NCBI GenBank assembly: GCA_965220155.1
Contig: OZ244810.1
Location: 626,728-690,727, forward strand
DNA: 64,000 nucleotides
Source of the DNA: Dehalococcoidia bacterium
Lineage (GTDB): Bacteria > Chloroflexota > Dehalococcoidia > SHYB01
Direction of reading: 5' to 3'
This document shows positions 1-50,716 of this stretch, piece after piece (the stretch's first letter is position 1; the number at the start of each line of letters is the position of its first letter). The position numbers were made by a program, and so were the translations under genes. The notes under the pieces are model-generated. The model worked only from the letters and a program-made list of their open reading frames with translations, was not told the DNA's origin and searched no databases.

Positions 1-1094
1 CCTTCCCGGTCCAGCACCGTCCCGATATCGTGAGGATGGATGTCCTCGATCACGAACGATAAGATACTCGCTTTCTCCTCGGCAGTCCCGATGAGCCGGA
101 CGCCTTCAATGCCGCCTACCTGATCAGTCGCATACTCCAGAAGGCCGTTCTCGTAGGCGGCTATGCCTTCCCACCCGATCCCCGAAAGATAGTCCACCGC
201 CGCCCCTAGTCCCACTACTCCGGCGATGTTGGGCGTCCCAGCCTCGAATTTATAAGGCAACTCGTTGTACAACGTCTTTTCGAAGCTCACCGAGCTGATC
301 ATGTCCCCGCCGCCCTGGTAGGGAGGCATCTTGTCCAGCAGCCTCTCCTTGCCGTAAAGCACCCCGATGCCGGTCGGCCCGAACAACTTGTGACCTGAGA
401 AGGTGTAGAAGTCGCAGTCCAACTCCTGGACATCGACCGGGAGATGACAAGCGGCTTGGGCCCCGTCCAACAGCACTGGGACGTCGCGTTGGTGGGCAAA
501 CTCGATGATGCGGCGGACCGGGTTGATCGTGCCAAGGGCGTTGGACATGTGCACGATGGAGACCAACCGTGTCCGAGGGCCGAGCATTGCCTCAAACTGG
601 CCCATATCAAGCTCGCCGGTATCGGTGACGGGCACGACTCGAAGCTGGGCCCCTGTCTGCTGGCACAGGATCTGCCACGGCACAATATTGGAGTGGTGCT
701 CCATCGCTGAGACGATGATCTCGTCCCCTTCCTTCGCGTTCGTCCGCCCATAACTGTTGGCCACGAGATTGATGCCCTCAGTCGTCCCGCGGACGAACAC
801 AATCTCACAGGTCGAGGCGGCGTTTAAGAACTGCTGGAGCTTTTTGCGAGTTCCCTCATAGGCCTCCGTCGCGACCTCGCTGAGGTAATGGACTCCCCTG
901 TGGACGTTCGAATTCTCCGTCGAGTAGTACCGTTCCAACCGGTCGATGACCGCTTGGGGCTTCTGTGCCGTCGCCGCGTTGTCCAGATAAACGAGCGGCT
1001 TTCCTCGCACCGCGAGGTCGAGGGCCGGGAAGTCGGCCCGGACCGACTGGGGATCGAACGGGAGTGCCGCGGTAGCTTGCCTGTGCAGCGTCAT
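1..1094 (-). CDS. sufS: Cysteine desulfurase SufS (N-terminal about 364 aa; 3' end beyond the window start)
   Basis: Reverse translation from ATG at 1094 gives [27 protein letters not shown]...[23 protein letters not shown]...HRGVHYLS, a class-V aminotransferase / SufS signature. Its ATG overlaps the sufD stop (ATGA). Confidence 0.85.
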
Positions 1095-2472
1095 CCGGCT
1101 CTCCCCGCTGCCACCGTTTCCGGCCGCTTCCCATCCGCCACGCCGGCGTCGAGTCTGGCGAGCTTTCGGGCAAGGGACCTGCCGGCCCGAGCCTGGAGCG
1201 ACCTCAGCCCAATCCGGTCGATAACCTCCCTGGCGAATGCATGGGCCAGGATGTCGCGCGCCTGGAGCTGATCCAGACCTCGGGCCCTCAGGTAGAAGAG
1301 GGCCTGATCGTCGAGTTTCCCGGCGGTGGCGCCGTGAGTGCAACGCACGTCATCGGCAAAGATCTCAAGATGCGGCTTGGTGTCGACCTCCGCCCCCGCA
1401 GAAAGGACCAGGTTCCGGTTGGCCTGATGGGCGTCGGTCTTCTGGGCGTTGGGCCGAACGAGGACCCGGCCGCTGAACACTGCGTGCGACTGTCCCGCCA
1501 CCAGCCCCTTGTAAAGCTGACGGCTCGACGTATGCGGACTCTGATGGTCAACGAAAGTGGCGTTGTCCACATGCTCTTGCCCGGACGTAACGTAGAGACC
1601 ATCGAGGTCTGCCTCCGCTCCCGGGGCTTCAAGCCTGACGTTCAAGTTGTGACGCAACAGCCGGCCTCCTAGAGAAAGAGAGACCGCCTTGAAACGGCTG
1701 TCGCGCCCCTGGCGCACCTCGGTCCTTCCGACGTGCGACGCGCCGTCCCCTTCCTGGGCAACCCTGTAGTACTTCAGAATCGACCCTTCTCCCAGCACCA
1801 CCTCCGTGACGGCGTTGGTGAAGCTGGGGCCTGGTGCCAGCCTGTGGTAGCTCTCGATAACAGTCGCTTCGGCGCCATCCTCGATAACGATCAGGGCTCT
1901 CGGATGCGTCACCGGGTCTGTTACCGTTCCCGTACTCAGGTGCAATACCTGCAAGGGGGGCTCCGGGGCCATTCCAGCCGGGACAAGCACAAGGGCGCCA
2001 TGATGAATGAAAGCCGTGCTGAGAGCAGTAAACCCATCCCCGTTGAGTTCAGCCAGCGATCCGAGATTCCTCGAAACGCCGTCGGGGTCGCGCTGAAGAG
2101 CTTCCACCAAGTCCGAAACAATGGCGCGAGTTGGGACAGGGTTGGCCGACGACAGGTCTAGAGAGTAGGCCCCGTCGACGAATACAAGCAGGGCCCCGGA
2201 GCCATTCAAGGCGAGGCCCTTGAGCATCGATGCCGAGGGGGTCTCGTTGGCCTCGAAAGGGTAGCGGAACCCGCCTCGGGCAATGCCGGCCACGCTGGTA
2301 TATTTCCACGCCTCGTTCCCGCGGCGTGCGGCGGGAAACCCGACCTCTTGAAACCGGGCGATGGCTTGCTCACGAAGCCGCCGCAGCCAGGGGACGTCCC
2401 CGCGACCCACTTCCTGGTCAAATCGCTGGAAATCGGCCACATAGGGCCCAAGGTCGATGGTGTTCGAGGCCA
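1091..2472 (-). CDS. sufD: Fe-S cluster assembly protein SufD
   Basis: The track ORF 1091..2590 contains [23 protein letters not shown]...[30 protein letters not shown], typical of SufD. Start taken at the internal ATG (MASNT); the upstream part is a TTG-initiated extension. Confidence 0.8.
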
Positions 2473-2489
2473 TGGCAGCGATCAAACCC

Positions 2490-3278
2490 CTAAGGGGCAC
2501 TCCCCGCCCCGACCTCAGTCTGGGCCTTGATCCACTCGTACCCCCTGGCTTCGAGCTCCAGGGCCAGCTTCCGGCCCCCCGACCGTTCAATACGGCCCTC
2601 GATCAACACATGCACGTAGTCGGGCTGGATGTAATTGAGCAGCCGCTGGTAGTGGGTCACGATGAGGGTCGCGTTGTCGTCCCGGCGCAGCGCCTCGACC
2701 CCAGAGGCCACGGTCTTGAGCGCATCGATGTCGAGCCCCGAGTCCGTCTCATCCAGAATGCCGAGCGACGGCTCGATCAGGGCCATCTGGAGAACTTCGT
2801 TCCGTTTCTTCTCCCCGCCGGAGAACCCCTCGTTTACTGACCGGCTAGTCAGCCCAGTCTTCATATTCATGAGTTTCATCTTTTCGCGCAGCACCTTATC
2901 AAAGTCCCTGAAGCTCAGCTCCTCCTGCCCCCGGTGTGTCCTTATGGCGTTTAGACTGGCCCGCAGGAAGTGGGAGTTCCGCACCCCTGGCAGCTCGATG
3001 GGGTACTGGAACGCCAGGAACACGCCCTCTCGCGCCCGTGCATCAGGAGGCAAGGCCAAGAGGTTGGCCCCTTTGTATTGGACCTCGCCACCGGTGACAA
3101 GGTAGGAGGGGTGGCCCGCCAGGACCATCGCAAGGGTACTCTTTCCGGACCCGTTGGGGCCCATGAGGGCATGGATCTGCCCCTCGTGGACCGTCAGGTC
3201 GACACCTTGGAGGATTTCCTTGCCGTCTACTGAGGCTCGCAGGCCGGAGATTGCCAGCAGCGGGGGTTTCTTCCCCAT
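2490..3278 (-). CDS. sufC: Fe-S cluster assembly ATPase SufC
   Basis: MGKKPPLLAISGLRASVDGKEILQGVDLTVHEGQIHALMGPNGSGKSTL... with Walker A and ABC signature. Start set at the internal M of track ORF 2490..3347. Confidence 0.85.
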   Translation of the reverse strand: MGKKPPLLAISGLRASVDGKEILQGVDLTVHEGQIHALMGPNGSGKSTLAMVLAGHPSYLVTGGEVQYKGANLLALPPDARAREGVFLAFQYPIELPGVRNSHFLRASLNAIRTHRGQEELSFRDFDKVLREKMKLMNMKTGLTSRSVNEGFSGGEKKRNEVLQMALIEPSLGILDETDSGLDIDALKTVASGVEALRRDDNATLIVTHYQRLLNYIQPDYVHVLIEGRIERSGGRKLALELEARGYEWIKAQTEVGAGSAP

Positions 3279-3283
3279 CTCGA

Positions 3284-4732
3284 TTAACCGACGCTCCCTT
3301 CGAGGCTGACCTGGAGCAGCTTTGACGCCTCCACTGCGAACTCCCATGGCAGCTCTTTGAAGACCTCTTTACAGAAGCCGTTGACGATCATCTGGTGCGC
3401 TTCTTCGGGCGAAATTCCCCGCTGCATGCAGTAGAAGAGCTGGTCGTCGCTTACCTTGGATGTTGACGCCTCGTGCTCGACGCTGCTGTCCGCGTTCTTG
3501 ACTTCGATATAGGGCACGGTATGCGCGCCGCTGGTGTCCGTCAGGAGAAGCGAGTCGCACTGGGTGTAGTTCCTGGCGCCAGCAGCGGTGGGCTGGACCT
3601 TCACCAGTCCCCTATAGGTATTGCTGCCATGGCCGGAGGAGATGCCCTTGGAGATGATGGTGCTCTTGCTATTCTTGCCTAGGTGCACCATCTTGGTCCC
3701 CGTGTCAGCTTGCTGCCGGTTGTTGACGACAGCCACTGAGTAGAACGCGCCGACCGAATCGTCCCCTTGGAGAATGACGCTAGGGTATTTCCACGTAATA
3801 GACGACCCCGTCTCTACCTGCGTCCACGAGATCTTCGACCGAGGCCCTGCGCACTTGCCCCTCTTTGTCACGAAGTTGAACACGCCTCCCCGGCCATCTT
3901 TGTCCCCCGGGTACCAGTTCTGGAGCGTCGAATACTTGATCTCCGCACCTTCGAGGGCCACCAATTCGACGACCGCCGCGTGGAGTTGATGACTTTTCCG
4001 TACTGGTGCAGTGCAGCCCTCGAGGTAACTCACATAGGAGCCCTCATCCGCCACAATGAGCGTGCGCTCGAACTGCCCGGACCCCTCGCTGTTGATTCGG
4101 AAGTAGGTCATCAGCTCGACTGGGCAACGGACCCCCTTTGGGATGTAAGCAAAGGACCCATCGCTGAAGACCGCGGAGTTCAGGGTTGCGTAGAAGTTGT
4201 CGGTGTACGGTACAACCGAGCCCAGGTACCTCCGCACAAGGTCCGGGTGCTTCTGGACCGCCTCGGTCAAGGAGCAGAAGATGACTCCTTCTTTTTGCAG
4301 GTTCTCCTGGTAGGTGGTGCCGACGGAGACACTGTCGAAAACAGCGTCGACTGCGACTCCAGCCAGCCGCTTCTGCTCTTCGAGAGGGACCCCCAGCTTT
4401 TCGAACGCAGCCAGAATCTCGGGGTCAACCTCTTCCAGGCTCTTCGGGGCTTCCCCCTTGATAGGCGAGGCGTAGTAGATGATGTCCTGGAAATCGATGG
4501 GTGGAAAGGTGACGTTCTGCCATGAAGGCTGCTCGCCCTGGACCTTGAGCCAATGGCGAAAGGCCTTGAGCCGCCACTCCAGCATGAAATCCGGTTCGCT
4601 CTTCTTGGACCAGATAAGCCGGACTGTGTCCTCGTTCAACCCTTTTGGGACCGCGTCCGAGTCGATCTCTGTAACCCAGCCGTGTTTGTATTCGGAGCTG
4701 GGGAGGGCAGGGGAAGTAGTCATCTTGGCCAT
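3284..4732 (-). CDS. sufB: Fe-S cluster assembly protein SufB
   Basis: 482-aa [44 protein letters not shown]..., the SufB family. Confidence 0.9.
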
Positions 4733-4770
4733 TTGTCTACAAAATCGATCGACTTAGTCGGTCTTTCCTC

Positions 4771-4800
4771 AGTATATGAATCCGCCACGGACCCTGTCAA
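4771..4800 (-). promoter_or_regulatory. Candidate sigma70-type promoter for the suf operon (-35 TTGACA, 18-nt spacer, -10 TATACT on the minus strand)
   Basis: Reverse complement of 4771..4800 reads TTGACAGGGTCCGTGGCGGATTCATATACT. The leader contains a GTCGATCGAT palindrome. A GGGGGCGCTGCAGCGCCCCC hairpin lies upstream. Confidence 0.3.
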
Positions 4801-4898
4801 ACAGGTTCGCGGCGACAGCCGGCCCCCGCTCGAACGCTGGTGGCGCCAAGCGGGGGCGCTGCAGCGCCCCCGGCAAGGCAACGTCTTTGCAGAGTCAG

Positions 4899-5282
4899 CT
4901 ACCAGTGCCACACAGAGTCATGGCTGTCCCAGAGGCCAGCCATGCCCTTGTTATCCACGACTTGAACGCCCTCGATGAGACCGCCCTTATCGATGCCCCG
5001 GGCTGCGAGGTCGTCCGAAACCGCGTAGACCTGGACCCCCTTGCCCATCAGCTCCTCCAGGTCTTTGTCGATGGTGGGAGGGACTCTCAGCGGGACCCCT
5101 CCTATGACAAGGCCACTGGCGTCCTGCCCTGGCAGGGCATAGTTCACCGCGTTTCCGCGAAGCAAGACCGACACGTCTGCCCCGGCATTCTTCACCGCTG
5201 CCGTGATCCACAATACGGTGTCATCCTGCTCTTCGATCGTCCCATGGTAGGCCCGCTCCACGATTGTGAGGATTTTGCCCAT
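4899..5282 (-). CDS. DsrE/DsrF/DsrH (TusBCD)-family sulfur relay protein, 127 aa
   Basis: MGKILTIVERAYHGTIEEQDDTVLWITAAVKNAGADVSVLLRGNAVNYAL...VYAVSDDLAARGI, a DsrE-like fold pattern. Start at the internal ATG of track ORF 4899..5381. Confidence 0.65.
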   Translation of the reverse strand: MGKILTIVERAYHGTIEEQDDTVLWITAAVKNAGADVSVLLRGNAVNYALPGQDASGLVIGGVPLRVPPTIDKDLEELMGKGVQVYAVSDDLAARGIDKGGLIEGVQVVDNKGMAGLWDSHDSVWHW

Positions 5283-5290
5283 GCTCGCTC

Positions 5291-5689
5291 CTACCGCGTC
5301 CCAATGATGAGCGTGTTGGCGCTCTCTTGCGACCACTTGAAGAGGTCCGCTGGTCCGCCCCTCCTGGGGCCGTCGATCCATGACCCGGAACCTCGTTCAT
5401 CGACACACAACCCGCAGTTGATCCAGTCGAGCTTGCCGTCGGCCATCTTAAACAGGCCGTCGATGAACTTGGACGTCGTGGGGTGGTCCTGCTGGTCGAC
5501 GTCTGTCCCTTTCACTGGGTTCGGGTGCGGCGCCTGCTCTTTCATGGTCATGTTCACCGCCCCCTCATACGCGAAGACGTTGACATTGTGCCCCTTCCGG
5601 AGGGCAGCATCGACGATCCTCATAACCGTCGTCGTCGTCTCCGACTCGTATGGAGGGTCCATAACCGCCATGGTAATGGTCTTGGTCAT
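5291..5689 (-). CDS. DsrE/TusD-like sulfur relay protein, 132 aa
   Basis: MTKTITMAVMDPPYESETTTTVMRIVDAALRKGHNVNVFAYEGAVN...INCGLCVDERG with a conserved Cys region like DsrE/TusD. Start at the internal ATG of ORF 5291..6082. Confidence 0.7.
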   Translation of the reverse strand: MTKTITMAVMDPPYESETTTTVMRIVDAALRKGHNVNVFAYEGAVNMTMKEQAPHPNPVKGTDVDQQDHPTTSKFIDGLFKMADGKLDWINCGLCVDERGSGSWIDGPRRGGPADLFKWSQESANTLIIGTR

Positions 5690-5724
5690 CGCTGGTCGCT
5701 CCTTAGCTCTACTTTGGGCCCGGA

Positions 5725-6054
5725 TCAATGCCAGACGGGCTTGATGTCGTCCTCGGCTAGCATATCTACCAGGTGATCGACGTTGCTGACCTTGACCCCG
5801 GAAAGCAGTGAGCCCAGCGCGATGGCCCGCTCCTTGAGGCAGAAATCGTCGGCCAGCACGTTCACCTTCCCACCAGTCAGGAGCCCTTGTACAGGGCTTT
5901 CCGTCCCCTGTCGGGCCATTAGCACCCCGTTTTGCAACAGGAAGAGGTTGACGTCGTTCCCTGCAGCCGCAAGGTCGCCTGCCAGGCCACACAGATAAGA
6001 AACATCCCCATATTCGAAGGGGTCTCGGGACTCGATCAACAGATACTTCGCCAT
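5725..6054 (-). CDS. DsrH/TusB-like sulfur relay protein, 109 aa
   Basis: MAKYLLIESRDPFEYGD...NLFLLQNGVLMARQG...KVNVLADDFCLKERAI matches the DsrH/TusB pattern (LLQDGV...VYVL.EDL.ARG). Start at the internal ATG of ORF 5725..6108. Confidence 0.6.
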   Translation of the reverse strand: MAKYLLIESRDPFEYGDVSYLCGLAGDLAAAGNDVNLFLLQNGVLMARQGTESPVQGLLTGGKVNVLADDFCLKERAIALGSLLSGVKVSNVDHLVDMLAEDDIKPVWH

Positions 6055-6212
6055 GGCACCTCCATTCCCATCGCGAGGCCACCGCTTCGGCCTACGGGTG
6101 CGCACCAAACACGAGCCTCGCCTAACCTCTCGCAGCAGCAGTTAACAGGGTACCACGAGGATGCTGAAGAATCAGCGTCAAGAAGATCGGACTAGGGCGG
6201 TCCCCCATTTCG

Positions 6213-6251
6213 TTAACACTCCATTAACACCGCGTTAAGCGTCCCTTAAAG
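6213..6251 (+). promoter_or_regulatory. Pho box: four direct repeats TTAACA / TTAACA / TTAAGC / TTAAAG at exact 11-bp phasing, immediately upstream of the pstS-like gene
   Basis: Sequence cgTTAACActccaTTAACAccgcgTTAAGCgtcccTTAAAGg, repeats starting near 6213, 6224, 6235 and 6246. PhoB/PhoP-type sites are direct repeats with 11-bp periodicity. A further TTAACA lies about 50 bp upstream. Confidence 0.5.
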
Positions 6252-6275
6252 GCCGTGATTCAGAGTGGGGGCAGC

Positions 6276-6860
6276 ATGACGCCAAGGGCCAACCTCGCCA
6301 GACCACGGGCACCCGCGCGTCGCATTCCTTGGATGCCTTGGCTGGCCGTGACCGTCACCGCCGCTGTCGCAGCAGGTACTCGCACTCCCGAAGGCACCGG
6401 GGGCGGCTTCAAGCGCTTCTGCTCGGGGGGGACGAACCTTTCCAGCGCCTCCCCCCGCTCCATCAAAGAGTACGAGAAGCGAGAATGCCGGCAGGCCGGG
6501 CTTGAGCACACGGAGTTTGGGGTCGCTATTGATGGGGTCTCGATTCTGGTTGACCCCAAGACCCGATTCGTGGACTTTCCGGCCACCGATGAATTGATGC
6601 GCATCCGGGCGCCGGGCTCCAAGGCTGCTTCCCCGTCGGAGGAGACCATCATTAGCGGGACCTACAGTCCGCCTTCCAGACCACTATACGTTTGTGCAAG
6701 CAACAGATCGTTGCGGGAAACGCCGGCCATTCTGGAGTTTGTCAGGTTGTACCTGGAAGGAGCAGGAGTCCTCTCGACCCGAGTCGGCTGTGCGGCCCCT
6801 TCAGACTCGTCCTACGTGAGCCGGCTGGAGCGGCTCGACGAGATAGCGGGCATGCCGTGA
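6276..6860 (+). CDS. pstS: PstS-family phosphate-binding protein homolog, abnormally short (194 aa; likely degenerate or pseudogene)
   Basis: Contains [38 protein letters not shown]...[13 protein letters not shown] and the C-terminal [14 protein letters not shown] motif of PstS (TIGR02136-like). It lacks the signal peptide / first strand and about 125 aa of the central domain relative to typical 300-340-aa PstS. Confidence 0.55.
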
Positions 6861-7807
6861 CGCTTGCGGAGCGGCCTTCGGACGAGAGCGGCCCGGGAGG
6901 GATCCCTCGGCGCCGCACCGGTCCCAGGGCGGAGGAATGGCTGGTCTCGAAGGGGCTCCTGATCGTCGCCATGGTCTCCGTGTTGACCACGGTTGGGATC
7001 GTGGTCTCTCTGTTGACCGAGGCCGTCTCCTTTTTCCGGGAGATTCCACTGTCGGAGTTCTTCGGGGATACGAGGTGGGCGCCCACCTTCGAGCCTCAGC
7101 ACTTCGGCATCTGGCCCCTGGTATCGGGGACGCTTCTCATCACAGCCATCGCCGCGGCCGTAGCGATCCCAGTGGGACTCGGTGCCGCGATTTTCTTGAG
7201 CGAATACGCTCCGGACAAGCTGCGCAGGACCCTGAAACCGATCCTCGAGGTCCTAGCGGGCGTGCCGACGGTCGTCTACGGCTTCTTTGCGCTGACGTTC
7301 GTTACGCCCACGATCATCCGTAACCTGCCGGGACCCTTCGCCGATGCCGATATCTTCAACGCTCTCAGCGCTGGGGTCGTGGTGGGCATCATGATCATTC
7401 CAATGATCGCTTCGCTCAGCGAAGACGCGATGACCGCGGTGCCGAAGTCGTTGCGAGAAGGGGCCTATGCCCTGGGCGCAACCCGGTTCGAGGTAGCTAG
7501 CAAGGTGGTGGTACCAGCCGCTTTCTCTGGGATAGTGGCCTCGTTCATCCTGGCAATATCCAGGGCCATCGGTGAAACCATGATCGTCACTCTTGCGGCG
7601 GGCGCGACTCCAAAGCTGACGGCGAATCCACTTGAGAGTATCCAGACGATGACTGCCTACATCGTCCAGATCAGCCTCGGCGAAACGCCTTTCGGCTCGA
7701 TCGAGTACAAGACCATTTTCGCCGTGGGCCTCGTCCTGTTCATCATCACGCTGGGGATGAACATCCTGGGGCATTGGATCGTCAGGCGCATTCGGGAGGC
7801 CTACTGA
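6857..7807 (+). CDS. pstC: Phosphate ABC transporter permease PstC
   Basis: TM-rich ORF with ...[37 protein letters not shown]...[15 protein letters not shown] start overlaps the pstS stop (GTGA). Start uncertain within track ORF 6692..7807. Confidence 0.75.
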
Positions 7808-13977: not shown

Positions 13978-15095
13978 ATGATTGCGAAAGGATTGGGAAA
14001 GAGCCTGCTCAAAGCGTTGGGAAAGGTGCCTGATCCCCGGTCTGGTCATGGTCGTCGTCACCCGCTGAGCGCAATCTTGGCGCTATCGGTGTGCGCGATG
14101 ACCAGCGGCGCCCGTAGTCTCTATGCCATCGCCCAATGGGGAAGGATGCAGGACCCGGATACGCTCAAGGCATTGGGGTTCAGTAGGGACAGGACCCCTG
14201 CCGTGTCCACGTTGCACAAGGTGTTTCGCAGTATGGACGTGGATGCCTTCGAGGTGGTGTTGGGTGCATGGGTCGAATCGCAGTTGGGCACAGGGGAGGA
14301 GGCCCTAGCGATAGATGGCAAGGCGCTGAGAGGGATCCACGGGGACGACGAGGTGCCTGGAGTCCGCCTGGTGGCTGCCTACACCCATCGCCAGGGTCTG
14401 GTGGTGGGCCAAAAAGGGGGGTGCGGGCTGAGCGGCATGAGTCCGAGTTGAGCATTGCGGGTGCGCTGTTGGGGACGGTCCCGCTGACGAACAGGGTGGT
14501 CACCGCAGACGCCCTGTACTGCCAGAAGCGGTGGTGCGAGCAGGTGGTTTCTGAAGGTGGAGACTACCTGCTGATCGTCAAGGGCAACCAGAAGGGCCTC
14601 TACGAGGATATCGAGCTGTGTTTCGAGGAGCCGGTGGCGGGGGAGACCTACGCCTATGCCGAGACGGAGGACCGGCATGGAGACCGAAAGGACCGTCGCA
14701 GGCTGTGGTCGACCGACACGCTGAGGACCTATCTGGACTGGCCCGGACACCAGCAGGTGATGAAGGTAGAGCGTCGGTGCCGGGTGAACGGCAAGACCAC
14801 TCGGCAGGTCCGATACGCGATCACCAGCCTGGGGGATCGGACCCCTGATAGCCTGCTCCAACTGATTCGAGGCCATTGGGGAATCGAAAACGGTCTCCAC
14901 TATGTGCGGGACGTCACGCTGGGAGAAGATGGCTCCCAGATACGGACCGGCTCAGCGCCACAGGTGATGGCCGCTGTGAGAAACCTGGTGCTCACGATCC
15001 TCAGATTGTCCGGTGCGGTCAACATCGCAGCAGCGATCAGGAACATCGGATGGCAGCCTAATGGCCCCCTCAGACTGCTCGGACTGCTCACATGA
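13978..15095 (+). pseudogene. ISAs1-family transposase, split by a frameshift in an A5G6 homopolymer run (about 14411..14425)
   Basis: ORF1 13978..14451 (MIAKGLGKSLLKALGKVPDPRSGHGRRHPLSAILALSVCAMTSGARS..., the ISAs1 N-terminal region) and ORF2 in another frame to 15095 (...VTADALYCQKRW...GDYLLIVKGNQ...HWGIENGLHYVRDVTLGEDGSQIRTG...). The junction GQKGG / VRAERHESELSIAG lies at ggccaaaaaggggggtg. This is either a sequencing error, true inactivation, or a programmed frameshift. Confidence 0.6.
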
Positions 15096-46557: not shown

Positions 46558-48150
46558 TCAGCCATCTGCGGGCCCTGAGTCTCGTGCCCCGCGGTTTGCC
46601 GTTCCGCCACCCTCGATAACCACATGGCGCAACCATGACTCCGACGTCTCGGGATAGTCGGTCCGGAAATGCGCTCCACGGCTTTCCGTACGGTAGAGTG
46701 CCGCTTCGGCCATCAACCGCCCGGTGATCACTGCGTTGCGCAGGTCATATGATGGGCGATCCGAGGGGAGCGGTAGCGTTAGCTCCCAGGCAGCAAGCGT
46801 CCGGGCCGCGCGCTCCAGCCCCTCACCCGACCGCTCGATGCCAACGTTGTCCCACATCAACTCTTGCACGGCGGCCGGGCTGGGGGATGGGTAATCGAAC
46901 GGGTCCTCGTCGCGCGACGGAAGCGTTCTCATCTCTTCGGTCCTACCGTTGGTCTCGGTCTCGCGCGCCGACATCGGCGTTATCGTACGGTCTACCATGC
47001 GCTTGCTGAACACTACCGTCTCCAGGAGGGAGTTGCTAGCGAGGCGGTTGGCCCCATGGGCTCCCGTGCACGCGGTCTCCCCCGCTGCCAGCAGCCCCTT
47101 AACGCCAGTCTCGCCGAAGCTGTTCACCTTGATCCCGCCCATCATGTAGTGGGCGGCCGGCGCCACCGGGATAAGCTCACCCGTGATGTCGAGACCACGG
47201 TCCATGCAGAACTGGAAGATCTGCGGGAAGCGGGTAGATACTCGCTGAGGAGGAAGGTGGCGAACGTCCAGGAATACGCAGTCTCCACCGGCTTTCCTCA
47301 TCTCCGTCACGATGGCCCGGGCGACAATATCCCTCGGGGCAAGGTCACCAAGGTCCGAATACTCCGCCATGAAGGCCTTGCCGTCCTCGCGGCGGAGAAT
47401 GCCGCCCTCCCCTCTCACAGCCTCGGAGATCAAGAACACCGGGGCGCCCGGAAGGCGCAGCGCCGTGGGGTGGAACTGGAAGAACTCCATATCCATGACC
47501 TGTGCACCAGCCTTGTAGCCCAGAGACACCCCATCCCCGGTGACGACCTCCGAATTGGTGGTGAGCCGATATAGACGCCCCGCCCCTCCAGTGGCCAGGA
47601 CGACGTCCCGGCAGTAGACCTCCTCTACGGACACGTTCCGGATGTCGAACACCGACACCCCTTGAACGGCTCGGTCTGCTACGTCAATGCCACTGAGGAG
47701 GCTGTAGTCTCGAAGCTCGATGGACGGTGTGTGGGCCCGCTCGGCCAGCGCCTGCTCGATGTGCTTGCCAGTCGCATCGCCACCGGCGTGCAAGACCCTC
47801 TCGAGGCTATGGGCGCCTTCTCGGGCGAGGGCGATCTCTCCATCCAGGGTGTCGAATGGGACCCCGAATCGGATCAGGTCGGCGATCCGCTCGGGCCCCT
47901 CTTCCGTGAGAATCCGGGTGTGCCGCCGGTCGTTGAGCCCGGCCCCGGCCCCCTCCGTGTCGCTTTGGTGGAGGGCAGGGCTGTCATCCGGTCCTATGGC
48001 AGCAGCGATGCCCCCCTGGGCGTACCGGGTGTTGCATTCGTCGATGCTCCCCTTGGTGACGAGGAGAACACTGCCATGTTCCTTCGCAAGCAGGGCAGTA
48101 TAGAGCCCCGCAATGCCCGAGCCTACGATGACGTAGTCGTAATAGCCCAC
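46558..48150 (-). CDS. nadB: L-aspartate oxidase
   Basis: MGYYDYVIVGSGIAGLYTALLAKEHGSVLLVTKG...YAQGGIAAAIGPDDSP... with the FAD-binding Rossmann and succinate dehydrogenase / fumarate reductase flavoprotein fold. Confidence 0.9.
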   Translation of the reverse strand: MGYYDYVIVGSGIAGLYTALLAKEHGSVLLVTKGSIDECNTRYAQGGIAAAIGPDDSPALHQSDTEGAGAGLNDRRHTRILTEEGPERIADLIRFGVPFDTLDGEIALAREGAHSLERVLHAGGDATGKHIEQALAERAHTPSIELRDYSLLSGIDVADRAVQGVSVFDIRNVSVEEVYCRDVVLATGGAGRLYRLTTNSEVVTGDGVSLGYKAGAQVMDMEFFQFHPTALRLPGAPVFLISEAVRGEGGILRREDGKAFMAEYSDLGDLAPRDIVARAIVTEMRKAGGDCVFLDVRHLPPQRVSTRFPQIFQFCMDRGLDITGELIPVAPAAHYMMGGIKVNSFGETGVKGLLAAGETACTGAHGANRLASNSLLETVVFSKRMVDRTITPMSARETETNGRTEEMRTLPSRDEDPFDYPSPSPAAVQELMWDNVGIERSGEGLERAARTLAAWELTLPLPSDRPSYDLRNAVITGRLMAEAALYRTESRGAHFRTDYPETSESWLRHVVIEGGGTANRGARDSGPADG

Positions 48151-48200
48151 GGCAGTTTAAGGAAAGTCCTTCGGCATGACGCCTTGGCCGGCCGGGCCGG

Positions 48201-49400
48201 CTACCTGATGGCCAGCATCCGCTCCAGGGCGGCCCTCGCCCAGTGGGCCACCTTGTCGTCCACCTTGACCTGATTGATGACCTGGCCCTCGACTAGCCCC
48301 TCCAGGACCCAGGCCAGGTATGCCGGATGGATCCGGTACATCGTCGAGCAAGGACAGATCACGGGGTCGAGGCAGAATATCGTCTTGTCCGGCTGCTCCT
48401 TGGCAAGCCGGTTGACGAGGTTTATCTCGGTGCCCACCGCCCAAACACTTCCGGCGGGGGACCCGGTCACGGTCTTGATAATGAATTCCGTCGACCCGTC
48501 GGAATCGGCGGCGGCGACGACCTCACGCTCGCACTCGGGGTGGACTACGACGTTGACGTCTGGGAAGCGCTGCCGCGCCTCTTCGATTTGCTCTACCGTG
48601 AAGCGCTTGTGGACCGAGCAATGCCCTTTCCAGAGAATGAATGTGGCCTGCTCGAGCTGCTCCTCGGTGTTGCCTCCCAGGGGTTGGAACGGGTCCCACA
48701 CGACGGTGTCCGATTCTGAGAACCCCACCTTGAGCGCTGTGTTGCGGCCCAGATGCTGGTCCGGGAAGAAGAGCACCTTCTGCCGCTGCTGCAAGGCCCA
48801 TTCGACGGCCGCCCTCGCATTGGACGACGTGCACACCAGCCCACCGTTGATCCCGCAGAACGCCTTCAGGGCCGCCGCCGAGTTCATGTAGGTGACAGGC
48901 AAGACGCCGTTCCGCACGCCGTCCAGCGACTGAAGGTCCTCCCAGCACGTCAGGACATCTTCGGTTGGGGCCATGTCAGCCATAGAGCAGCCGGCTGAAA
49001 GATTCGGGATGATCGTGGCCTGGTGCGGCTGGCTCAGGATATCCGCGCTCTCGGCCATGAAGTGCACACCGCAAAACACGATGTAGTCGGCCTCCGGCCG
49101 GCCGGCCGCGAACTGGGCGAGCTTGAAGGAGTCGCCGCGGAGGTCTGCATATTGGATAATCTCGTCTCGCTGGTAATGGTGTCCCAGAATGACGAGCCGC
49201 TCACGCAACGCCGCCTTGGCTGCCGAGATGCGCTCGTGCATCTCGCCCTCCGGAAGACCCAAGTAGTGTCTGGGGAGCTGGCTCCCTCCCGGCCGCAGTG
49301 ACATCTCCGTCCGGAACAGGAGATCGGCCAGCGACCGGTCCGCGTCACATGCCTTTTCAGGGGTGACTCTGTCCGCGACCGTTAGGTTGAAACTCATCAT
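48201..49400 (-). CDS. nadA: Quinolinate synthase NadA
   Basis: ...LVILGHHYQRDEIIQYADLRGDSFKLAQFAA...IVFCGVHFMAESADIL...CSM...HPEC...CPCSTMYRI.... Start at the ATG (MMSFNL...) because the longer track ORF would overlap miaB. Confidence 0.85.
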   Translation of the reverse strand: MMSFNLTVADRVTPEKACDADRSLADLLFRTEMSLRPGGSQLPRHYLGLPEGEMHERISAAKAALRERLVILGHHYQRDEIIQYADLRGDSFKLAQFAAGRPEADYIVFCGVHFMAESADILSQPHQATIIPNLSAGCSMADMAPTEDVLTCWEDLQSLDGVRNGVLPVTYMNSAAALKAFCGINGGLVCTSSNARAAVEWALQQRQKVLFFPDQHLGRNTALKVGFSESDTVVWDPFQPLGGNTEEQLEQATFILWKGHCSVHKRFTVEQIEEARQRFPDVNVVVHPECEREVVAAADSDGSTEFIIKTVTGSPAGSVWAVGTEINLVNRLAKEQPDKTIFCLDPVICPCSTMYRIHPAYLAWVLEGLVEGQVINQVKVDDKVAHWARAALERMLAIR

Positions 49401-49411
49401 TGACCCCGCAT

Positions 49412-50716
49412 CTATCGGTCCAGGGGCAACACTGCCCGGGCCCCCTGGGTGACTCTTCCCTGCAGCGACCACGGAGAAGCAGACCCGATCTCCACATCCA
49501 CGAGCTCTCCGTAGTGCCGTTCGCCCCCTTGCACATGCACCAGCCTGTTGGAGCGTGTCCGGCCTTGCCAGCGGCCGTCTTTCTCCCGTTCGATCAGCAC
49601 TTCTTCGGTGCTCCCGACGAGGGCCCGGTTGTTCTCCAGCGATATCTCCCGCTCCACGGCCTCGAGGATGTCTCGCCTGCGCCGTTTTTCCTCATCAGGG
49701 ACATCGTCCTGCATCTTGCGATATGACACCGTCCCCGGCCTGGGCGAGTACATGGCGATGTGGACCTTGTCGAACCGGGCCCTCTCCACCAGGTCAACGG
49801 TCTCGTCGAACTGCGAGGCCGTCTCGCCCGGGAACCCCACAATGATGTCCGTGGTCAACCCGGCCCCGGGCATGGCTTCCCGGATACGCCCCGCGAGGTC
49901 GAGGTAGTCCTCCCTCGTATAGCCCCGCCTCATGTTCGCCAGCACCTCGTTGTTACCGGCTTGAACAGGGAGATTGATGTACTCGCAGACCTTCTCTTCC
50001 GCCGCTACAGTCTGGATGATTTTCTCGCTCATGTCGTTGGGGTGGGATGTCAGGAACCGGACCCGCTTTATCTCCTCCACACCGCCGATGGCATGGAGAA
50101 GGTCTGCCAGGTCCGGCTGGCCTGGAAGGTCGTGACCGTAGGAGTCGACGTTCTGGCCCAGCAGCGTGACCTCTTTGACCCCCCTGTGGGCAAGCATCAC
50201 GGCCTCTTGCACCAGATCGTCGATGGGCCTGCTCTGCTCCCGGCCGCGTCGATAGGGGATAATGCAGAATGTGCAGAACTTGTCGCAGCCGTGAATGATG
50301 GGGATGAAGGTGGCGACGGACGGCCTGCTCGGCACCAGGGGCAGCGAGTTGTCGATACAGGTGCCTTCCTGTGCCTCGACCAGGCGAAGAAGGTCGCCGA
50401 ACTCCTGGGGCCTCATAAAACAGTCGACATAGGGGAAGCGCCGCCGCAGGTCATCCGTCTTGGGCCCCACCATGCAGCCCATGAGGGCGATGGTCTTTTC
50501 TGGGTGCTCTCGCTTCAACCCTCTCAACGAGCCCAGGCGCCCAGACACTTTGTCCTCGGCGCCCTGCCTGACCACGCAGCTATTCAGGACGATGACATCC
50601 GCGTCTTCCAGGACAGACGCCTCGTCACACCCGAGCCGGTCTAGGGCGTTGCCCAGCCGCTCCGAGTCGGCGACGTTCATCTGGCATCCCACTGTCCAGA
50701 TGTGATAGGTCGTCAT
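49412..50716 (-). CDS. miaB: tRNA-i6A37 methylthiotransferase MiaB (radical SAM)
   Basis: MTTYHIWTVGCQMNVADSERLGNALDRLG... (UPF0004 Cys triad) ...HGCDKFCTFCIIPYRRG (radical SAM CxxxCxxC) ... TRAM domain. Confidence 0.85.
   Translation of the reverse strand: MTTYHIWTVGCQMNVADSERLGNALDRLGCDEASVLEDADVIVLNSCVVRQGAEDKVSGRLGSLRGLKREHPEKTIALMGCMVGPKTDDLRRRFPYVDCFMRPQEFGDLLRLVEAQEGTCIDNSLPLVPSRPSVATFIPIIHGCDKFCTFCIIPYRRGREQSRPIDDLVQEAVMLAHRGVKEVTLLGQNVDSYGHDLPGQPDLADLLHAIGGVEEIKRVRFLTSHPNDMSEKIIQTVAAEEKVCEYINLPVQAGNNEVLANMRRGYTREDYLDLAGRIREAMPGAGLTTDIIVGFPGETASQFDETVDLVERARFDKVHIAMYSPRPGTVSYRKMQDDVPDEEKRRRRDILEAVEREISLENNRALVGSTEEVLIEREKDGRWQGRTRSNRLVHVQGGERHYGELVDVEIGSASPWSLQGRVTQGARAVLPLDR

Follow-up and report, generated by a model that had tools for sequence, protein, structure and literature searches.

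A window of 64,000 nucleotides (nt) from a Dehalococcoidia bacterium (contig OZ244810.1, positions 626,728 to 690,727 of the forward strand) carries, at its positions 4,899 to 6,054, three small genes in a row which are here called g1, g2 and g3. They lie directly upstream of sufB and in the same orientation, and are followed by a set of genes for Fe-S cluster assembly by the SUF system. The first-pass annotation of this window described the three as a DsrE/DsrF/DsrH-like sulfur-relay set fused to the front of the suf operon; its coordinates and sizes (109, 132 and 127 amino acids, aa) for three small DsrE-fold genes are exact. The gaps between the genes are 35 nt from g1 to g2 and 8 nt from g2 to g3, each of the three is preceded by an AGGAG-type ribosome-binding site, and a further 166 nt separate g3 from sufB. 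The trio is referred to below as the cassette.

Fold and active site of the three proteins

All three proteins have the DsrE/YchN fold. In keeping with the first-pass assignment, each scores above cut-off in Pfam: g1 as DsrE (23.6 bits against a cut-off of 22.7, which is marginal, with a further 20.9 bits for DsrH), g2 as DsrE (34.5 bits) and g3 as DsrH (37.5 bits, cut-off 24.4). Profiles of the three proteins gave only marginal matches to DsrE, DsrH and MTH1491 among PDB sequences (E 0.005-0.1), and a comparison of folds was therefore needed. AlphaFold single-chain models of g1 and g2, with predicted local distance difference test (pLDDT) values of 92.3 and 88.7, have as their best Foldseek matches in the PDB YchN, DsrE (2HY5_A), TusD (2D1P_A), DsrH and TusB, at template-modelling (TM) scores of 0.67-0.81 and 12-23% identity. 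The g2 model matches DsrE and TusD with a TM score of 0.73, and the g1 model is closest to YchN (0.81), followed by DsrH and TusB. Proteins g1 and g3 are paralogous (hhalign probability 94%, E 1e-7) and DsrH is a top sequence match of both among solved structures; the trio is therefore composed of H-like, E-like and H-like members and not of E, F and H. The fold implied by the original naming holds for all three proteins, but the F-like member does not, g1 being DsrH-like and not DsrF/TusC-like.

By alignment, g2 keeps the active-site Cys of DsrE and TusD, as had been proposed for the middle gene: C92 is the equivalent of Cys78 in both E. coli TusD (2D1P_A) and Allochromatium vinosum DsrE (2HY5_A), the two reference sequences having been verified against the PDB chains. 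A second invariant Cys, C95, follows three residues later, and H55, N57, P58, H69, P70, D97, E98 and R99 are also invariant; the motif C-x-x-C-x-x-E-R-G is still present in the most divergent members of the g2 family. In the g2 model C92 ends the strand 87-92 and C95 lies inside the helix 93-99, and a C-x-x-C placed where a strand ends and a helix starts is the geometry of redox or metal-binding motifs. The other two subunits hold no comparable residue, as g3 has no Cys at all and neither of the two in g1 is conserved, most orthologues having Ser or Tyr instead (Ser at position 72 in 77 of 81). One of these two, Cys72 of g1 (window 5839-5841, within D-D-F-C-L-K-E-R), is homologous in position to C95 of g2 and occurs only in the window and in relatives L009 and L028.

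Codon 92 of the window's g2 is TGC, making it the Cys form. An in-frame TGA stands at this codon in four species genomes (L009, L016, L028 and L041), which are the closest relatives of the window in the genome scan described below, with g2 identities of 70-80%. A fifth case, L105, was the one contig returned when the metagenomes of JGI were scanned for the g2 active-site region with TGA replacing the first Cys codon; besides g1 and the beginning of g3, it carries a g2 whose codon 92 is TGA. In all five TGA forms the reading frame is conserved to the usual stop, and synonymous differences are present among them. The five share a stem of 9 bp closed by a GUG loop (U-GGACGAGC-GUG-GCUCGUCC-A), which begins 10 nt after the UGA and in which two substitutions retain pairing via G-U wobbles; this hairpin is absent from the Cys forms of g2. 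When 88 sequences are ranked by folding energy downstream of codon 92, the TGA forms take ranks 1, 2, 9, 11 and 15. An in-frame TGA with a downstream hairpin is the signature of bacterial selenocysteine insertion, and the five relatives are probably selenocysteine (Sec) forms with a U-x-x-C motif. An exchange of Sec and Cys at the active-site position of the DsrE fold would mark residue 92 as redox-catalytic.

Distribution of the cassette and its relation to the suf operon

One genome per GTDB species was scanned for relatives of g2, which are present in at least 549 species, and the gene neighbourhoods of the 80 best-matching species loci were then surveyed, suf genes being sought within 10 kb. 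The cassette is complete and in the same order, g1-g2-g3, in all 80 of these loci, where g2 is 62-80% identical to that of the window and the hosts belong to Chloroflexota, Actinomycetota, Acidobacteriota and Binatia. A 90%-clustered protein collection holds 5,990 matches to the g2 family, the 120 best of which come from several phyla and are 64-80% identical to the window's g2. The cassette occurs in the abundant marine SAR202 group, and its distribution is patchy and accessory, as plasmids are included and only some Burkholderia carry it. The plasmid copies of Paraburkholderia and Methylophaga encode a g2 about 51-53% identical to the window's, and Burkholderia stabilis carries the cassette on chromosome 2 as a solitary unit, surrounded by genes for SnoaL, EthD and short-chain dehydrogenase proteins. 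The gene before the cassette runs on the opposite strand in 49 of 80 loci, as does the gene after it in 36 of 83, and the immediate neighbours are mixed, with methyltransferase, ammonium transporter, FtsH, PQQ-propeller and SnoaL genes among them. Two downstream neighbours match GH15/glucodextranase, probably because the 800-aa proteins encoded downstream in L077 and L083 are glucoamylase-like; these had been considered as P-type ATPases and were rejected, as they show no match to an ATPase query and have a glucoamylase-like N-terminus. The description best supported for g1-g2-g3 is that of an autonomous, horizontally mobile three-gene operon, and a literature search found no published work characterising it.

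This distribution bears on the proposal of the first-pass annotation that the trio is a dedicated persulfide relay feeding, or co-regulated with, SufS and SufBCD, the whole then being an extended suf operon. The short distance of 166 nt to a sufB on the same strand would fit such a relay, as would the sulfur-carrying Cys kept in g2. The arrangement is also stable, recurring in at least 14 contigs of the source species from several samples, and sufB lies downstream as well in a groundwater relative (L089/L090) with 80% identity in g2. However, this relative is the only other place in which the adjacency is found: in the 80 species loci surveyed, neither sufB nor sufD nor an orthologue of sufS or sufU lies within 10 kb of the cassette, and a conserved linkage to suf is thus missing in these genomes. 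Relatives at 72-78% identity carry coaBC, a histidine kinase gene or a CysK/M-like gene in place of suf, and three of the close relatives with a probable selenocysteine form (L009, L016 and L041) have genes for a CoA-transferase, DAHP synthase, ribosomal protein S2 or a CysK/M-like protein as neighbours. A literature search likewise found no published DsrE-like genes linked to suf.

The DNA between g3 and sufB also tends to argue against a common operon. The 166-nt spacer is structured, folding at -75 kcal/mol (z = -2.9, with none of 200 shuffles as stable), it is conserved among contigs of the source species, and it contains a putative promoter matching 11 of 12 consensus positions. As the first-pass annotation had noted, this TTGACA-18-TATACT element is the sole sigma-70-like site found in 4500-6500, and from it suf could probably be transcribed independently of the cassette. 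In L089 a hairpin after g3 is followed by 1.4 kb of unrelated DNA with open reading frames (ORFs) on the opposite strand, and sufB there has its own promoter-like TTGACC...TAGACT upstream. The sibling contigs of the source species show the suf unit in full, with sufB, sufC, sufD and sufS followed by sufU (Pfam-annotated in L099-L102) and with gene ends that overlap by 4-11 nt. The SufU encoded there has 150 aa, matches NifU_N and shows the Cys residues usual for it. SufU is the standard sulfur acceptor of SufS, and its presence at the end of the operon means that the acceptor role is not vacant.

Taken together, a module dedicated to SUF is judged very unlikely, and what had been called a fusion to the front of the operon is plain adjacency across a structured spacer and a putative promoter. 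The arrangement is best read as ordinary synteny which a narrow clade has inherited, an accident of local gene order and not an operon fusion. A SufS-family paralogue, 25-29% identical to SufS, does lie 3-4 kb from the cassette in one Dehalococcoidia subclade (11 species loci and two strain contigs) and in one Terriglobia locus. A class-V aminotransferase gene near the cassette in L006 was set aside as irrelevant, since it proved to be SerC.

Table 1. Coordinates of the cassette, the neighbouring suf unit and associated features (window positions unless a locus is named).
Feature	Position	Strand	Description
g1	6054..5725	minus	109 aa; cassette gene 1; DsrE-fold subunit, DsrH/YchN-like; Cys-less as to conserved positions
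g2	5689..5291	minus	132 aa; DsrE/TusD-like subunit, putatively catalytic; C92-G-L-C95, His55 and His69 invariant
g3	5282..4899	minus	127 aa; last gene of the cassette; Cys-less DsrH/TusB-like subunit
sufB	4732..3284	minus	ORF and translation; separate neighbouring unit
sufC	3278..2490	minus	ORF and translation
sufD	2473..1091	minus	ORF and translation
sufS	from 1094, continuing past window edge	minus	ORF and translation
Sigma-70-like promoter of sufB	4771..4800	minus	TTGACA-18-TATACT, 11/12 matches, 39 nt before sufB
GC-rich stem-loop region 3' of g3 stop	4815..4872	minus	CGGGGGCGC-TGCA-GCGCCCCCG and alternative longer hairpin; no T-run
TTAAYG direct repeats, four, 11-bp phased	6211..6249	minus	Divergent region between g1 and pst-phoU; pattern scan
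TGA sites (probable Sec codons)	L009:9957, L016:10274, L028:699, L041:10274, L105:1036		Correspond to window codon 5416..5414

The features flanking the cassette are summarised in Table 1. In the region 3' of the g3 stop, the GC-rich segments CGGGGGCGC, GCGCCCCCG and CGGGGGC can pair as two mutually exclusive hairpins; neither has a T-run after it, and the region does not count as a terminator by the T-run rule. The leader of sufB contains, 3' of the promoter, the palindrome CGACTAAGTCG at 4750-4760, and its GACTAAG core is common to the sufB leader of L089 (about 5177-5205). This palindrome may be a candidate suf-specific operator; a second exact copy was not found in the window, nor was any operator common to suf and the cassette.

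On the other side of the cassette, divergent from g1, one ORF is followed by pstC, pstA, pstB and phoU. The TTAAYG repeats in this divergent region gave two overlapping matches to the pattern in the window against none expected. The array is conserved in the sibling contigs, and a degenerate TTAAAC/TTAAGG/TAAAAG array occupies the same place upstream of g1, beside phoU, in L089 (about 2465-2495). The repeats may be response-regulator boxes of the Pho type. The ORF between the cassette and pstC (6255-6860, plus strand, 201 aa; called as a gene of 193-194 aa in sibling contigs) stands where pstS would be expected; a reading of it as a truncated pstS was dropped as it has no Pfam match.

Elsewhere in the window, which is matched by a 445-kb contig of sample ERZ25072076, an ISAs1-type transposase gene at 13978-15095 is broken into two ORFs that overlap, one for DDE_Tnp_1_assoc and one for DDE_Tnp_1. 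This insertion sits between rplT and the gene of a DtxR/IdeR-family iron repressor bearing an FeoA domain, and sibling contigs of the source species are without it, the gap between the two genes there being 118 nt. In the stretches 49412-50716 (minus strand) and 46558-49472 and next to them, the gene of a radical-SAM methylthiotransferase of the MiaB/RimO type adjoins nadA, nadB and nadC, followed by genes for IleRS, Rho and other housekeeping proteins.

Sulfur and metal gene neighbours and the proposed chemistry

Hints to the role of the cassette come from its neighbours in other genomes. The genes up to 5 kb away were searched for families shared by three or more phylum-level groups, and besides generic short-chain dehydrogenases and ABC ATPases only two specific families were found. 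The first is a fusion of an ETHE1/GloB-like metallo-beta-lactamase with a rhodanese, which is present in five loci of Chloroflexota, Acidobacteriota and Actinomycetota; in four of these it immediately precedes the cassette and has the same orientation. In the Terriglobia locus L068 (5599-10806) the cassette lies in a compact neighbourhood with genes for a class-V aminotransferase of the cysteine-desulfurase family, a short-chain dehydrogenase and the rhodanese-metallo-beta-lactamase fusion, the last of which ends 49 nt before g1. The second family consists of heavy-metal P-type ATPases, found within 3 kb in four loci of three phyla (Binatia, Acidimicrobiales and Paraburkholderia): L006, where a CsoR-family gene is also present, L086, L088 and plasmid pBIL of Paraburkholderia fungorum, which in addition has DUF2933 genes.

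Individual loci add further sulfur genes to this picture. On a plasmid of Methylophaga thalassica (NZ_CP143310.1; L103, 4198-8800) a cysJ-like gene, cysI, g1, g2 and g3 form an apparent operon with a divergent LysR regulator gene upstream, the stop of cysI at 7652 being followed without a gap by the start of g1 at 7653. A CysK/M-like gene lies directly upstream of the cassette in L041 and L092. In published sulfane-sulfur clusters of heterotrophs, proteins of the DsrE type are encoded together with persulfide dioxygenase and rhodanese (PMC9918477). Recurrent sulfur-gene neighbours make a sulfur-related role of the cassette plausible; in this respect the sulfur-trafficking module of the first-pass annotation is plausible, while its dedication to SUF is not supported.

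The explanation favoured here, with a confidence slightly better than even, is that the cassette encodes a general redox-active complex for handling sulfane sulfur which has the architecture of DsrEFH/TusBCD and is not a part of SUF. The products of g1, g2 and g3 would assemble into one complex in which g2 is the sole catalytic subunit, with C92 paired with C95, and in which the Cys-less, DsrH-like paralogues g1 and g3 are probably scaffolds. C92, or selenocysteine in the closest relatives, would be loaded with sulfane sulfur and so carry a persulfide; the donor could be, for instance, a rhodanese, a cysteine desulfurase or a low-molecular-weight persulfide. C95 could then resolve the intermediate on C92, by which sulfide would be released or handed on, or the sulfur moved to an acceptor, and the resulting C92-C95 disulfide would be recycled by cellular thiol reductants. 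Acting in this way, the complex would be a general redox-active hub in the cytoplasmic traffic or detoxification of sulfide and persulfide.

Several points weigh against this explanation. Each kind of sulfur neighbour is present in only about 5-15% of loci, and the theme could be partly a selective reading of the neighbourhoods. The selenocysteine assignment is drawn from sequence, and an Rfam scan of L009, L016, L028 and L105 returned no selenocysteine insertion sequence (SECIS) or other RNA family. The persulfide role proposed for the family is a prediction, and a functional link to SUF may exist in trans. Each of the three subunits has numerous invariant polar residues, which suggest more than a simple relay, and the P-type ATPase genes, which recur equally, fit metal binding together with the C-x-x-C and the two invariant His.

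The last of these points leads to a module for metal binding or metal defence, in which Cu(I), Zn, Cd or an Fe-S cluster would be held by C92, C95, His55 and His69. A C-x-x-C at the N-terminus of a helix, combined with the two invariant His and with the P-type ATPases mentioned above, would fit such a module, and "FeS-binding protein" is a name given to the g2 family in some database entries. That name is, however, a putative annotation, and ATPase genes are found near the cassette no more often than sulfur genes. More divergent members of the g2 family lose His55 yet keep the C-x-x-C, and exchange of selenocysteine and cysteine is more typical of redox catalysis than of structural metal sites. 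A metal role is considered unlikely on these grounds.

The invariant polar residues could instead belong to a defined small-molecule site, and g2 would then be a thiol-selenol oxidoreductase that reuses the DsrE fold and whose substrate is not sulfane sulfur but, for example, a peroxide, disulfide or metalloid. Its (U/C)-x-x-C motif resembles that of redox selenoproteins with the thioredoxin fold, and JGI names the homologues of g1 "predicted peroxiredoxin". Against this, the name is a generic one from COG, the first Cys is found exactly at the persulfide-carrying position of DsrE and TusD, and the specific recurrent neighbours are sulfur enzymes; such an oxidoreductase is quite unlikely.

The general sulfane-sulfur complex may be taken one step further, in a version that is put forward as doubtful. 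The cassette could be an unrecognised, enzyme-like heterotrimer of DsrE-fold subunits with a (Sec/Cys)-x-x-Cys redox centre, at which sulfide is captured or released as a protein-bound persulfide. Independent of the Tus and Dsr pathways, it would stand where four processes meet in SAR202 and other abundant aerobic heterotrophs, namely assimilatory sulfite reduction, cysteine synthesis, persulfide oxidation and Fe-S assembly, and its placements in different lineages beside suf, cysJI, cysK/M or persulfide-dioxygenase-rhodanese genes would then all express one shared hub function.

For SUF itself the significance of the locus is slight, as it offers a standard sufBCDSU set with a lineage-specific adjacency. 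The cassette deserves attention in its own right, being a strongly conserved, widespread and uncharacterised three-gene unit. Automated annotation gives it names such as TusD/DsrE, "sulfur reduction protein" and "peroxiredoxin", and these can misdirect metabolic reconstructions to sulfur oxidation or tRNA thiolation. The exchange of Sec and Cys at residue 92 is a concrete handle for biochemistry, and cultured carriers (Burkholderia stabilis, Paraburkholderia fungorum and Methylophaga thalassica) make genetics of the cassette feasible.

Comparison with known systems

TusBCD of E. coli (YheNML; PDB 2D1P) is the sulfur relay for 2-thiouridine in tRNA, and DsrEFH of A. vinosum (PDB 2HY5) is the sulfur donor to DsrC in rDsr sulfur oxidation. 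Both are alpha2-beta2-gamma2 heterohexamers, while the models used here are of single chains. In terms of sequence, the cassette is neither a canonical TusBCD nor a canonical DsrEFH. Its scores in the NCBIfam equivalog models are all under cut-off (TusD 22.4 against 89.25 bits, TusC 16.1 against 94.15, and TusB, with g3, 36.4 against 49.2). Searched against 1.84 billion representative proteins, the g2-family profile gave 337 clusters at E <= 0.001, many of them fragments, and at this threshold it did not reach classical TusD or DsrE. Such a cassette is absent from the published classification of DsrE proteins, which recognises DsrE/TusD and the classes DsrE2 to DsrE5 (PMC11094781).

With TusBCD the cassette shares three small DsrE-fold genes side by side in one operon, a middle subunit whose C92 aligns with Cys78 of TusD and whose model has the TM score to TusD given above, and a g1 that matches TusB. 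These likenesses, together with the name "tRNA 2-thiouridine synthesizing protein D" which JGI gives to many members of the g2 family, could make the trio the TusBCD orthologue of its lineage, in which case it would supply MnmA with the sulfur of a cysteine desulfurase, for 2-thiouridine at position 34 of tRNA. The differences make this highly improbable. Apart from scores far under the TusD, TusC and TusB cut-offs, identity is only 14-20%, the order is H-like, E-like, H-like as opposed to D-C-B, and the second invariant Cys of the C-x-x-C and the selenocysteine variants are not Tus features. No TusA CPxP motif and no TusE/DsrC C-terminal motif was found in the window or within 10 kb around about 95 loci, where only spurious out-of-frame ORFs matched, and an MnmA context is also missing within 10 kb in the loci examined. 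A patchy accessory gene is, moreover, unlike a core tRNA-modification gene.

DsrEFH shares the fold and the position of the active-site Cys with the cassette, and DsrH is a top solved-structure match of g1 and g3. The placement of the Methylophaga cassette directly after cysI, a siroheme sulfite reductase gene, may be seen as a distant echo of DsrEFH with DsrAB. However, no dsrAB or dsrC is near the cassette in any locus examined, the g2-family profile stops short of classical DsrE, and DsrH has a conserved Cys20 where the H-like g1 and g3 have no conserved Cys. The hosts differ as well, being mostly aerobic heterotroph lineages (SAR202/Dehalococcoidia, Acidimicrobiia, Binatia, Acidobacteriota and Burkholderia).

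SufE and SufU are the dedicated persulfide acceptors of SufS in SUF Fe-S assembly. The cassette has in common with them that small, Cys-bearing proteins which could accept a persulfide are encoded beside sufS and sufBCD. Their folds are unrelated to those of the cassette proteins, and as mentioned the genome already has SufU in sufBCDSU, and cassettes of other species lack the suf linkage that only the source species and L089/L090 show.

Another parallel is offered by the sulfane-sulfur detoxification clusters of heterotrophs, in which DsrE-type carriers such as YrkE of B. licheniformis and CstA of S. aureus sit with persulfide dioxygenase and rhodanese (PMC9918477). In five loci of three phyla the cassette, too, lies beside a gene of this kind, for a persulfide-dioxygenase-like metallo-beta-lactamase-rhodanese. 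The published clusters differ from the cassette in that single proteins or domains are accompanied by TusA, SQR and the regulator CstR, while the cassette has three subunits without TusA and shows its persulfide-dioxygenase association in a minority of loci.

Finally, a "DsrE-like protein" with domain PF02635 and a UxxC motif has been predicted as a prokaryotic redox selenoprotein of unknown function, and the papers that report it do not describe the three-gene cassette (PMC1088965, PMC2398784, PMC13188914). The family is known from the Sargasso Sea and GOS selenoproteomes, from which the window's g2 differs in being a Cys form, and like the cassette it has no function assigned to it. Its published exemplars are WP_014524487.1 and AACY01486889. 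The likeness to g2 is one of domain and motif: g2 is a PF02635 protein with (U/C)-x-x-C, and its relatives carry an in-frame TGA followed by a hairpin.

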